NCBI RefSeq assembly: GCF_044647545.1
Contig: NZ_CP172818.1
DNA length: 64,000 nt
Direction: 5' to 3' (one strand)
DNA from: Escherichia coli
Lineage (GTDB): Bacteria; Pseudomonadota; Gammaproteobacteria; Enterobacterales; Enterobacteriaceae
Below the pieces are notes generated by a model, which did no database searches, was not told the DNA's origin, and saw only the letters and a list, made by a program, of their open reading frames with translations. Numbering within the stretch: the first letter of the stretch is position 1; every line of letters starts with the position of its first letter. Of the stretch, positions 28,839-34,262 are shown piece after piece. A program made the translations under genes and the position numbers.

Positions 28839-30220
28839 CTGCTATTAATCGCATCCTTATTGTGGATGATGAAGATAATGTTCGCCGTATGCTGAGCACC
28901 GCTTTTGCACTACAAGGATTCGAAACACATTGTGCGAACAACGGGCGCACAGCATTACACCTGTTTGCCGATATTCACCCTGACGTGGTGTTGATGGATA
29001 TCCGCATGCCAGAGATGGACGGCATCAAGGCACTCAAGGAGATGCGCAGCCATGAGACCCGGACACCCGTTATTCTGATGACGGCCTATGCTGAAGTGGA
29101 AACCGCCGTCGAAGCACTACGCTGCGGAGCCTTCGACTATGTTATCAAACCGTTTGATCTCGATGAGTTGAATTTAATCGTTCAGCGCGCTTTACAACTC
29201 CAGTCAATGAAAAAAGAGATCCGTCATCTGCACCAGGCACTGAGCACCAGCTGGCAATGGGGGCACATTCTCACCAACAGCCCGGCGATGATGGACATCT
29301 GCAAAGACACCGCCAAAATTGCCCTTTCTCAGGCCAGCGTCTTGATTAGTGGTGAAAGCGGCACCGGGAAAGAGTTGATTGCCAGAGCGATTCACTACAA
29401 TTCGCGGCGGGCAAAGGGGCCGTTCATTAAAGTCAACTGCGCGGCACTGCCGGAATCGTTGCTCGAAAGTGAACTGTTTGGTCATGAAAAAGGTGCATTT
29501 ACTGGTGCACAAACCTTGCGTCAGGGATTATTTGAACGTGCCAACGAAGGTACTCTGCTCCTCGACGAAATTGGTGAAATGCCGCTGGTACTGCAAGCCA
29601 AATTACTACGCATTCTGCAGGAACGGGAATTTGAACGGATTGGCGGCCATCAGACCATAAAAGTTGATATCCGCATCATTGCTGCCACCAACCGCGACTT
29701 GCAGGCAATGGTGAAAGAAGGCACCTTCCGTGAAGATCTCTTTTATCGCCTTAACGTTATTCATTTAATACTGCCGCCTCTGCGCGATCGCCGGGAAGAT
29801 ATTTCCCTGTTAGCTAATCACTTTTTGCAAAAATTCAGTAGTGAGAATCAGCGCGATATTATCGACATCGATCCGATGGCAATGTCACTGCTTACCGCCT
29901 GGTCATGGCCGGGAAATATTCGAGAGCTTTCCAACGTTATTGAACGCGCCGTCGTGATGAATTCAGGCCCGATCATTTTTTCTGAGGATCTTCCGCCGCA
30001 GATTCGTCAGCCAGTCTGTAATGCTGGTGAAGCAAAAACAGCCCCTGTCGGTGAGCGTAATTTAAAAGAGGAAATTAAACGCGTCGAAAAACGCATCATT
30101 ATGGAAGTGCTGGAACAACAAGAAGGAAACCGAACCCGCACTGCTTTAATGCTGGGCATCAGTCGCCGTGCATTGATGTATAAACTCCAGGAATACGGTA
30201 TCGATCCGGCGGATGTATAA
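28835..30220 (+). CDS. atoC: Sigma-54-dependent response regulator AtoC
   Basis: 461-aa ORF with receiver domain, AAA+ sigma-54 activation domain (GESGTGKE, GAFTGA) and C-terminal HTH. Confidence 0.95.
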   Translation: MTAINRILIVDDEDNVRRMLSTAFALQGFETHCANNGRTALHLFADIHPDVVLMDIRMPEMDGIKALKEMRSHETRTPVILMTAYAEVETAVEALRCGAFDYVIKPFDLDELNLIVQRALQLQSMKKEIRHLHQALSTSWQWGHILTNSPAMMDICKDTAKIALSQASVLISGESGTGKELIARAIHYNSRRAKGPFIKVNCAALPESLLESELFGHEKGAFTGAQTLRQGLFERANEGTLLLDEIGEMPLVLQAKLLRILQEREFERIGGHQTIKVDIRIIAATNRDLQAMVKEGTFREDLFYRLNVIHLILPPLRDRREDISLLANHFLQKFSSENQRDIIDIDPMAMSLLTAWSWPGNIRELSNVIERAVVMNSGPIIFSEDLPPQIRQPVCNAGEAKTAPVGERNLKEEIKRVEKRIIMEVLEQQEGNRTRTALMLGISRRALMYKLQEYGIDPADV

Positions 30221-30231
30221 CGCCAAAACTT

Positions 30232-30272
30232 GCTATGCAGAAATTTGCACAGTGCGCAATTTTCTGCATAGC
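30232..30272 (+). promoter_or_regulatory. AtoC operator: 40-bp inverted repeat (GCTATGCAGAAATTTGCACA / GTGCGCAATTTTCTGCATAGC)
   Basis: Near-perfect palindrome about 85 bp upstream of the -24/-12 element, as expected for an enhancer-binding protein site. Confidence 0.75.
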
Positions 30273-30354
30273 CGCTCATTTTCCTTATAAACCCCCATCT
30301 AATTTATCCTTTTCTATTCAATTAGTTAAATAACAACCCCCAATAATCTCATTC

Positions 30355-30370
30355 TGGCACTCCCCTTGCT
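30355..30370 (+). promoter_or_regulatory. Sigma-54 (-24/-12) promoter of atoDAEB: TGGCAC-N5-TTGCT
   Basis: Canonical GG-N10-GC spacing, 46 bp upstream of the atoD ATG. Confidence 0.8.
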
Positions 30371-30415
30371 ATTCCCTGACTGTACCCACAACGGTGTATG
30401 CAAGAGGGATAAAAA

Positions 30416-31078
30416 ATGAAAACAAAATTGATGACATTACAAGACGCCACCGGCTTCTTTCGTGACGGCATGACCATCATGGTGGGCGGATTTATGGGGA
30501 TTGGCACTCCATCCCGCCTGGTTGAAGCATTACTGGAATCTGGTGTTCGCGACCTGACATTGATAGCCAATGATACCGCGTTTGTTGATACCGGCATCGG
30601 TCCGCTCATCGTCAATGGTCGAGTCCGCAAAGTGATTGCTTCACATATCGGTACCAACCCGGAAACAGGTCGGCGCATGATTTCTGGTGAGATGGACGTC
30701 GTTCTGGTACCGCAAGGTACGCTAATCGAGCAAATTCGCTGTGGCGGAGCTGGACTTGGTGGTTTTCTCACCCCAACTGGTGTCGGCACCGTCGTAGAGG
30801 AAGGCAAACAGACACTGACACTCGACGGTAAAACCTGGCTGCTCGAACGCCCGCTGCGCGCCGACCTGGCGCTAATTCGCGCTCATCGTTGCGACACACT
30901 TGGCAACCTGACCTATCACCTTAGCGCCCGCAACTTTAACCCCCTGATAGCCCTTGCGGCTGATATCACGCTGGTAGAGCCAGATGAACTGGTCGAAACC
31001 GGCGAGCTGCAACCTGACCATATTGTCACCCCTGGTGCCGTTATCGACCACATCATCGTTTCACAGGAGAGCAAATAA
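30416..31078 (+). CDS. atoD: Acetate CoA-transferase alpha subunit AtoD
   Basis: 220-aa ORF, CoA-transferase family. Confidence 0.95.
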
Positions 31079-31728
31079 TGGATGCGAAACAACGTATTGC
31101 GCGCCGTGTGGCGCAAGAGCTTCGTGATGGTGACATCGTTAACTTAGGGATCGGTTTACCCACAATGGTCGCCAATTATTTACCGGAGGGTATTCATATC
31201 ACTCTGCAATCGGAAAACGGCTTCCTCGGTTTAGGCCCGGTCACGACAGCGCATCCAGATCTGGTGAACGCTGGCGGACAACCGTGCGGTGTTTTACCCG
31301 GTGCAGCCATGTTTGATAGCGCCATGTCATTTGCGCTAATCCGTGGCGGTCATATTGATGCCTGCGTGCTCGGCGGTTTGCAAGTAGACGAAGAAGCAAA
31401 CCTCGCGAACTGGGTAGTGCCTGGGAAAATGGTGCCCGGTATGGGTGGCGCGATGGATCTGGTGACCGGGTCGCGCAAAGTGATCATCGCCATGGAACAT
31501 TGCGCCAAAGATGGTTCAGCAAAAATTTTGCGCCGCTGCACCATGCCTCTCACTGCGCAACATGCGGTGCATATGCTGGTTACTGAACTGGCTGTCTTTC
31601 GTTTTATTGACGGCAAAATGTGGCTCACCGAAATTGCCGACGGGTGTGATTTAGCCACCGTGCGTGCCAAAACAGAAGCTCGGTTTGAAGTAGCTGCCGA
31701 CCTGAATACGCAACGGGGTGATTTATGA
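31078..31728 (+). CDS. atoA: Acetate CoA-transferase beta subunit AtoA
   Basis: 216-aa ORF; start overlaps atoD stop (TAATG). Confidence 0.95.
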   Translation: MDAKQRIARRVAQELRDGDIVNLGIGLPTMVANYLPEGIHITLQSENGFLGLGPVTTAHPDLVNAGGQPCGVLPGAAMFDSAMSFALIRGGHIDACVLGGLQVDEEANLANWVVPGKMVPGMGGAMDLVTGSRKVIIAMEHCAKDGSAKILRRCTMPLTAQHAVHMLVTELAVFRFIDGKMWLTEIADGCDLATVRAKTEARFEVAADLNTQRGDL

Positions 31729-33047
31729 TTGGTCGCATATCGCGTTTTATGACGCGTTTTGTCAGCCGGTGGCTTCCCGATCCACTGATCTTTGCCATGT
31801 TGCTGACATTGCTAACATTCGTGATCGCGCTTTGGTTAACACCACAAACGCCGATCAGCATGGTGAAAATGTGGGGTGACGGTTTCTGGAACTTGCTGGC
31901 GTTTGGTATGCAGATGGCGCTTATCATCGTTACCGGTCATGCCCTTGCCAGCTCTGCTCCGGTAAAAAGTTTGCTGCGTACTGCCGCCTCCGCCGCAAAG
32001 ACGCCCGTACAGGGCGTCATGCTGGTTACTTTCTTCGGTTCAGTCGCTTGTGTCATCAACTGGGGATTTGGTTTGGTTGTCGGCGCAATGTTTGCCCGTG
32101 AAGTCGCCCGCCGAGTACCCGGTTCTGATTATCCGTTGCTCATTGCCTGCGCCTACATTGGTTTTCTCACCTGGGGTGGCGGTTTCTCTGGCTCAATGCC
32201 TCTGTTGGCTGCAACACCGGGCAACCCGGTTGAGCATATCGCCGGGCTGATCCCGGTGGGCGATACTCTGTTCAGTGGTTTTAATATTTTCATCACTGTG
32301 GCGTTGATTGTGGTGATGCCATTTATCACCCGCATGATGATGCCAAAACCGTCTGACGTGGTGAGTATCGATCCGAAACTACTCATGGAAGAGGCTGATT
32401 TTCAAAAGCAACTACCGAAAAATGCTCCACCGTCCGAGCGACTGGAAGAAAGCCGTATTCTGACGTTGATCATCGGCGCACTCGGTATCGCTTACCTGGC
32501 GATGTACTTCAGCGAACATGGCTTCAACATCACCATCAATACCGTCAACCTGATGTTTATGATTGCGGGTCTGCTGCTACATAAAACGCCAATGGCTTAT
32601 ATGCGTGCTATCAGCGCGGCAGCACGCAGTACCGCCGGTATTCTGGTGCAATTCCCCTTCTACGCGGGGATCCAACTGATGATGGAGCACTCCGGTCTGG
32701 GCGGACTCATTACCGAATTCTTCATTAATGTTGCGAACAAAGACACCTTCCCGGTCATGACCTTTTTTAGTTCTGCACTGATTAACTTCGCCGTTCCGTC
32801 TGGCGGCGGGCACTGGGTTATTCAGGGGCCGTTCGTGATGCCCGCAGCCCAGGCGCTGGGCGCTGATCTCGGTAAATCGGTAATGGCGATCGCCTACGGC
32901 GAGCAATGGATGAACATGGCACAACCGTTCTGGGCGCTGCCAGCACTGGCAATCGCCGGACTCGGTGTCCGCGACATCATGGGCTATTGCATCACTGCCC
33001 TGCTCTTCTCCGGCGTCATTTTCGTCATTGGTTTAACGCTGTTCTGA
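31725..33047 (+). CDS. atoE: Short-chain fatty acid transporter AtoE
   Basis: 440-aa polytopic membrane ORF. Confidence 0.93.
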   Translation: MIGRISRFMTRFVSRWLPDPLIFAMLLTLLTFVIALWLTPQTPISMVKMWGDGFWNLLAFGMQMALIIVTGHALASSAPVKSLLRTAASAAKTPVQGVMLVTFFGSVACVINWGFGLVVGAMFAREVARRVPGSDYPLLIACAYIGFLTWGGGFSGSMPLLAATPGNPVEHIAGLIPVGDTLFSGFNIFITVALIVVMPFITRMMMPKPSDVVSIDPKLLMEEADFQKQLPKNAPPSERLEESRILTLIIGALGIAYLAMYFSEHGFNITINTVNLMFMIAGLLLHKTPMAYMRAISAAARSTAGILVQFPFYAGIQLMMEHSGLGGLITEFFINVANKDTFPVMTFFSSALINFAVPSGGGHWVIQGPFVMPAAQALGADLGKSVMAIAYGEQWMNMAQPFWALPALAIAGLGVRDIMGYCITALLFSGVIFVIGLTLF

Positions 33048-33077
33048 CGGCAACCCTACAGACAGAAGGAATATAAA

Positions 33078-34262
33078 ATGAAAAATTGTGTCATCGTCAG
33101 TGCGGTACGTACTGCTATCGGTAGTTTTAACGGTTCACTCGCTTCCACCAGCGCCATCGACCTGGGGGCGACAGTAATTAAAGCCGCCATTGAACGTGCA
33201 AAAATCGATTCACTACACATTGATGAAGTGATTATGGGTAACGTGTTGCAAGCCGGGCTGGGGCAAAATCCGGCGCGTCAGGCACTGTTAAAAAGCGGGC
33301 TGGCAGAAACGGTGTGCGGATTCACGGTCAATAAAGTGTGTGGTTCGGGTCTTAAAAGTGTGGCGCTTGCCGCCCAGGCAATTCAGGCAGGTCAGGCGCA
33401 AAGCATTGTGGCGGGGGGTATGGAAAATATGAGTTTAGCGCCCTACTTACTCGATGCAAAAGCACGCTCTGGTTATCGTCTTGGAGACGGACAGGTTTAT
33501 GACGTAATCCTGCGCGATGGTCTGATGTGCGCCACCCATGGTTATCATATGGGGATTACCGCCGAGAACGTGGCCAAAGAGTACGGAATTACCCGAGAAA
33601 TGCAGGATGAACTGGCGCTACATTCACAGCGTAAAGCGGCAGCCGCAATTGAGTCCGGTGCTTTTACAGCCGAAATCGTCCCGGTAAATGTTGTCACCCG
33701 GAAGAAAACCTTCGTCTTCAGTCAAGACGAATTCCCGAAAGCGGATTCTACGACTGAAGCGTTAGGCGCATTGCGTCCGGCCTTCGATAAAGCAGGAACA
33801 GTCACCGCCGGGAACGCGTCTGGTATTAACGACGGTGCTGCCGCTCTGGTGATTATGGAAGAATCTGCGGCGCTGGCAGCAGGCCTTACCCCCCTGGCTC
33901 GCATTAAAAGTTATGCCAGCGGTGGCGTGCCCCCCGCATTGATGGGTATGGGACCAGTACCTGCCACGCAAAAAGCGTTACAACTGGCGGGGCTGCAACT
34001 GGCGGATATTGATCTCATTGAGGCTAATGAAGCATTTGCCGCACAGTTCCTTGCCGTTGGGAAAACCCTGGGCTTTGATTCTGAGAAAGTGAATGTCAAC
34101 GGCGGGGCCATCGCGCTCGGGCATCCTATCGGTGCCAGTGGTGCTCGTATTCTGGTCACACTATTACATGCCATGCAGGCACGCGATAAAACGCTGGGGC
34201 TGGCAACACTGTGCATTGGTGGCGGCCAGGGAATTGCGATGGTGATTGAACGGTTGAATTAA
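33078..34262 (+). CDS. atoB: Acetyl-CoA acetyltransferase (thiolase II) AtoB
   Basis: 394-aa ORF with thiolase motifs (VNKVCGSG, C-terminal CIGGGQG). Confidence 0.95.

Follow-up and report, generated by a model that had tools for sequence, protein, structure and literature searches.

Is the atoC-atoD intergenic spacer of this Escherichia coli chromosome, in which a long inverted repeat precedes a sigma-54-like -24/-12 element, an intact enhancer-dependent promoter for the atoDAEB operon, and are the genes that it would serve complete? The locus was analyzed within a window of 64 kb, the term being used here for the whole stretch of DNA under analysis (64,000 nucleotides), in which the gene order, following the annotation of matching records, is rcsD-rcsB, rcsC, atoS-atoC-atoD-atoA-atoE-atoB and yfaP-yfaQ. 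The 401 bases around the element are 100% identical to FDAARGOS_497 and 97% identical to K-12, and by the annotation of both records they run from the end of atoC, across a spacer without annotation, into the beginning of atoD.

The control of atoDAEB has been the subject of several experimental studies. The AtoC-binding site is described as experimentally verified by Pilalis et al. (2011; PMC3118216), who give it as an inverted 40-bp palindrome, lying upstream of atoDAEB and composed of two 20-bp sites. According to the summary of Matta et al. (2007) given in that paper, the palindrome governs induction by acetoacetate and is occupied in vivo, and acetoacetate-activated AtoC acting on it drives sigma-54-dependent expression. 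Published genomic SELEX data for K-12 place an RpoN-holoenzyme site in the spacer between atoC and atoD, and a published K-12 Pato-GFP reporter is acetoacetate-responsive in an atoSC+ background and silent in strains deleted for atoS, atoC or atoSC.

Results

The palindrome is formed by a left arm, GCTATGCAGAAATTTGCACA (30232-30251), and a right arm, TGCGCAATTTTCTGCATAGC (30253-30272), each 20 nt long, which are complementary at 18 of 20 positions (90%) and leave a single unpaired G (30252) at the centre. It is the sole inverted repeat in the window with 20-nt arms, at least 18 of 20 matches and a loop of 0-5 nt, and no comparable repeat arose in 30 second-order Markov simulations of the window. 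The near-perfect inverted repeat that the initial annotation had placed upstream of the sigma-54 element is therefore well founded; its length, given there as 40 bp, is 41 bp, the second arm had been drawn to take in the central G, and the gap to the promoter, given as about 85 bp, comes to 82 bp between the end of the palindrome and TGGCAC. The palindrome starts 11 nt past the atoC stop codon, and its centre lies 104 bp upstream of the -24 GG. Counted from the atoD start (ATG at 30416), its half-sites GCTATGCAGAAATTTGCACA and GCTATGCAGAAAATTGCGCA occupy -184 to -144 and match the published AtoC sites letter for letter and at the same offsets, the published table listing GCTATGCAGAAATTTGCACA at -184 to -165 (+) and GCTATGCAGAAAATTGCGCA at -163 to -144 (-) from the atoD start, both scored positive (Table 5 in PMC3118216). 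The features of the region are collected in Table 1.

Table 1. Features of the atoDAEB control region and the ato genes, in window coordinates, with the share of invariant columns in the Escherichia/Citrobacter spacer alignment.
Feature	Position	Strand	Basis or content	Invariant columns
atoS, sensor histidine kinase, 608 aa	27012..28838	+	FDAARGOS_497 annotation, Pfam	
atoC, sigma-54 enhancer-binding response regulator, 461 aa	28835..30220	+	Pfam, motifs	
AtoC enhancer (UAS), 41-bp palindrome	30232-30272	.	two 20-bp half-sites, inverted, on either side of a central G	76%
Candidate IHF site, ATTCAATTAGTTA	30316-30328	+	one mismatch to WATCAANNNNTTR, centred at about -58	40% (IHF-like block)
Sigma-54 promoter, -24 TGGCAC / -12 TTGCT	30355-30370	+	exact consensus, conservation	69%, every consensus position conserved
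Start-site region and atoD leader with Shine-Dalgarno AAGAGGGA	30371-30415	+	predicted start near 30380	62%
Two spacers				7% and 4%
atoD-atoA-atoE-atoB operon	30416..34262	+	CoA-transferase alpha and beta subunits, SCFA transporter, thiolase	

The TGGCAC-N5-TTGCT promoter described earlier is present as an exact match on the + strand, TGGCACTCCCCTTGCT at 30355-30370, which is the only exact TGGCAC-N5-TTGCW match in the window. Taken alone, such a match is only modestly improbable, with a chance expectation of 0.16 per window and at least one occurrence in 14 of 100 shuffled windows; what makes it convincing is its conservation together with its placement, correctly oriented, 61 bp ahead of the atoD ATG. 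A scan of positions 29800-30800 returned no sigma-70-like promoter. From the geometry of the -12 element, transcription would be expected to start near 30380. The AtoC footprint is reported to extend from -146 to -107 relative to the transcription start, which would presumably place +1 at about 30378-30379. The leader that follows (30371-30415) is invariant at 62% of columns across Escherichia and Citrobacter, a level of conservation that exceeds the needs of a Shine-Dalgarno sequence alone.

That the spacing between the two elements leaves room for an IHF-induced bend, as had been proposed, is plausible: a candidate site lies roughly halfway between enhancer and promoter and is better conserved than its surroundings, with 40% invariant columns in the cross-genus alignment versus 4-7% in the flanking spacers, but the motif itself occurs at chance frequency, the window holding 56 one-mismatch matches against 49 expected. 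Because the motif is not above chance, it is position and relative conservation that point to 30316-30328 as the best candidate, and the likely location, for an IHF site. The site is unchanged in seven of eight intact E. coli alleles, EcPF16 differing at 30328, and its ATTCAA-N4-TTA core is retained in most Citrobacter, with variable flanks. IHF is reportedly required for activation; the literature searched gave no explicit statement of IHF dependence at atoDAEB.

The completeness of the ato module, which the initial annotation had read from the promoter, does not follow from the promoter alone, and the genes were therefore checked one by one. The products of atoS, atoC, atoD, atoA, atoE and atoB measure 608, 461, 220, 216, 440 and 394 aa, equal to their K-12 counterparts, with no internal stops and 0-5 amino acid changes with respect to K-12 (four in AtoS; V400A as the single change in AtoC), so that all six genes are full length and uninterrupted and the module is complete. 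AtoS presents PAS, HisKA and HATPase_c domains above the Pfam cut-off and a faint HAMP domain below it. AtoC combines Response_reg, Sigma54_activat (E 1.5e-75), AAA_lid_14 and HTH_8 domains with a GAFTGA motif (residues 220-225), a Walker A motif (GESGTGK, 173-179) and D55, and the operon products fall into the expected families: CoA_trans for AtoD and AtoA, SCFA_trans for AtoE and Thiolase_N/C for AtoB. The genes rpoN and ihfA/B lie outside the 64-kb window.

Within E. coli, the 195-bp spacer (30221-30415) differs from that of K-12 at 12 positions (6.2%), versus 1.1-2.0% in the ato genes, and the 12 differences all lie outside the palindrome, the -24/-12 element and the 13-bp IHF-like site. 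Across eight intact E. coli alleles (94-100% identity), comprising the present one, that of K-12 and six others, the palindrome carries one substitution, in one strain, the -24/-12 element carries none, and variation clusters at 30281-30314 and 30335-30339. The spacer present here is a minority allele, found at 99% identity or more in only 131 of 3,923 E. coli genomes, and of 5,426 complete E. coli genomes, 1,503 (about 28%) show no match to the region. In E. coli CUVM53 (L084, 2440-2760), a 147-bp deletion runs exactly between two copies of TGGCACTCC, located here at 30355-30363, in the -24 element, and at 30502-30510, inside atoD. The -12 element is thereby lost along with the leader and the N-terminus of atoD, and the result is, as predicted from the parts lost, a natural promoter-null allele.

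A wider comparison is provided by a scan with AtoC over one genome per species. The atoC-atoD arrangement recurs there in five Citrobacter species, whose AtoC is 83-86% identical, and in a divergent Escherichia, with 90% AtoC identity; hits outside these two genera were mostly distant paralogues of the NtrC family and tell nothing about the promoter. The TGGCA and TTGC cores show no variation among the eight sequences of the cross-genus comparison, the distance from palindrome to TGGCA is 123-126 bp, and the TGGCA-to-ATG distance is a constant 61 bp throughout. Conserved elements and spacing, set in spacers that drift, are the pattern that would be expected of a functional enhancer, a looping spacer and a promoter, and this footprint independently bears out the published AtoC site and sigma-54 promoter. 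In these relatives (L005-L010), substitutions in the palindrome are concerted, with G>A at position 9 of both arms in the divergent Escherichia and A>T at position 12 of both arms in Citrobacter. At arm position 18 the A/G asymmetry persists throughout, and the AtoC helix-turn-helix is invariant across Escherichia and Citrobacter. The variable arm positions lie within an A/T tract between invariant TGCA and TTGC(A/G)CA blocks, and they probably tolerate any A/T base.

Several features elsewhere in the window are also of note. The gyrA gene (43762-46389, - strand) encodes Leu83 and Asn87 in place of Ser83 and Asp87, which is the classical double quinolone-resistance mutation and makes it very likely that the strain is fluoroquinolone resistant. 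Between inaA and glpQ (56543-56555), the window lacks 1,867 bp with respect to the otherwise 99.95%-identical FDAARGOS_497, including in the latter most of an MFS transporter gene and most of a LysR-family regulator gene, and the two parts of the alignment share 13 bp where they meet. In yfaS, of the alpha-2-macroglobulin family (36767-41386, - strand), one in-frame stop yields ORFs of 809 and 704 aa; FDAARGOS_497 and K-12 alike carry the gene as an annotated pseudogene, interrupted by an internal stop. Antisense inside nrdA, a sigma-54-like sequence with one mismatch, GGGCACGCGCCTTGCT (53533-53548, - strand), was dismissed, the chance expectation for such matches being 3.8 per window.

Discussion

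The palindrome and the -24/-12 element together most probably constitute the native acetoacetate-inducible promoter of atoDAEB, an AtoC enhancer acting on a sigma-54 element, and we put the probability of this reading at about 95%. An AtoC-bound enhancer acting on a sigma-54 promoter, as the initial annotation had it, agrees with the identity of both arms to the published bound sites and with the published RpoN binding and dependence on atoS and atoC. In the mechanism that these elements suggest, sigma-54 RNA polymerase would occupy the -24/-12 element (30355-30370) as a closed complex unable to open the DNA alone. Acetoacetate sensed by AtoS would lead to phosphorylation of AtoC, and phospho-AtoC would then assemble on the 41-bp palindrome (30232-30272). 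The intervening AT-rich DNA would loop, probably aided by IHF at about 30316-30328, allowing the AtoC AAA+ ring to touch sigma-54 via its GAFTGA loop. ATP hydrolysis would open the promoter, and transcription would proceed from near 30380 through atoD, atoA, atoE and atoB.

The position of the palindrome at the end of atoC raises the alternative that it serves, mainly or additionally, as an RNA hairpin at the 3' end of atoSC, either an intrinsic terminator or an mRNA stabilizer, insulating atoDAEB from read-through. The repeat begins 11 nt after the atoC stop codon, its predicted RNA fold reaches -23.3 kcal/mol (z = -5.35 versus shuffles), and at two positions other lineages show parallel changes in the two arms. 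The stem is followed, however, by CGCUCAUUUUCC instead of an adjoining U-run, a consensus terminator scan made no call, and the downstream sequence is C-rich and devoid of a T-run in the divergent Escherichia and in all five Citrobacter; an intrinsic terminator as the primary function was rejected on these grounds, stable as the fold is. A search of 29500-31000 for structured RNAs gave no Rfam match at E <= 1. Furthermore, the A/G asymmetry at position 18 has been retained everywhere, unrepaired, the symmetry of the arms is equally expected of a site for identical protein subunits, and the conservation of the palindrome is explained by experimentally verified AtoC binding, which leaves the hairpin very doubtful as an account of this element. 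A related and speculative proposal would have the AtoC palindrome double as a stem-loop at the 3' end of the atoSC mRNA, stabilizing the transcript and partly insulating atoDAEB, with its arms kept matched either by selection for symmetry or by quasipalindrome template-switching. Such a dual role, if true, would account for the appearance of the same substitution in both arms while the AtoC helix-turn-helix stays invariant; we deem it rather unlikely. Given the probable tolerance of the variable positions for any A/T base, the parallel substitutions may have arisen by template-switch mutation or through a preference for symmetry.

Two further readings bear on the promoter itself. Were the palindrome and the -24/-12 match products of chance, atoDAEB would depend on an ordinary sigma-70 promoter, and the exact sigma-54 consensus does arise in 14 of 100 shuffled windows. 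Against this stand the lack of any sigma-70-like site in 29800-30800 and of any comparable palindrome in the 30 simulated windows, the conservation of elements and spacing across genera while the spacers diverge, and published binding and genetic data that apply to the identical K-12 sequence. Because of this conservation and the published experiments, the chance reading is effectively refuted and its probability negligible. It is also conceivable, if unlikely, that the elements are intact and that this minority allele nonetheless differs from K-12 in basal level or inducibility. The 12 spacer substitutions include AACCC at 30335-30339, where K-12 has TAAAT, and C at 30374, where K-12 has G, the latter falling shortly after the -12 element and before the predicted start; the intergenic divergence of 6.2% stands out from the 1.1-2.0% of the ato genes, and the allele is shared, at 99% identity or more, by only 131 of 3,923 genomes. 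The substitutions nevertheless spare palindrome, IHF-like site and -24/-12 element alike, spacer lengths are unchanged, and the C at 30374 is the state of every sampled E. coli allele not of the K-12 type and of all Citrobacter.

The AtoC/sigma-54 promoter is an ordinary, natural allele of the already known and well-studied AtoSC/sigma-54/atoDAEB control region, and beyond annotation it carries little significance other than indicating that the strain has a complete and apparently functional system for the utilization of acetoacetate and short-chain fatty acids. The presence of the ato region in E. coli is nonetheless not a given, since about 28% of complete genomes are without it and in at least one strain the promoter has been deleted.

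Among known systems, this promoter stands closest to K-12 Pato, with which it shares locus, gene order, both half-sites, the -24/-12 element and the spacing of these elements to the atoD ATG, and from which it differs by 12 spacer substitutions outside the elements and by AtoC V400A, as a natural allele of the same promoter. The Citrobacter promoters (L006-L010) present an orthologous palindrome, GCTATGCAGAATTTTGCACA-N-TGCGCAAAATTCTGCATAGC, followed by TGGCA(C/T)-N5-TTGC(A/T) at 61 bp from the ATG; in contrast to the E. coli promoter, half-site position 12 is T instead of A in both arms, the spacers are largely unalignable, and the distance from enhancer to promoter is 0-3 bp longer. The textbook paradigm of the sigma-54 enhancer is the NtrC-dependent glnAp2 promoter of enteric bacteria, which is not known to need IHF. 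On the one hand, the ato promoter resembles glnAp2 in relying on a two-component response regulator of the NtrC family, on paired dyad sites that lie over 100 bp ahead of the -24/-12 element, and on looping and ATP hydrolysis. On the other hand, the two differ in regulator, in site sequence and in signal, acetoacetate versus nitrogen status, and, unlike those of glnAp2, the ato sites abut into one 41-bp palindrome and IHF is reportedly needed.
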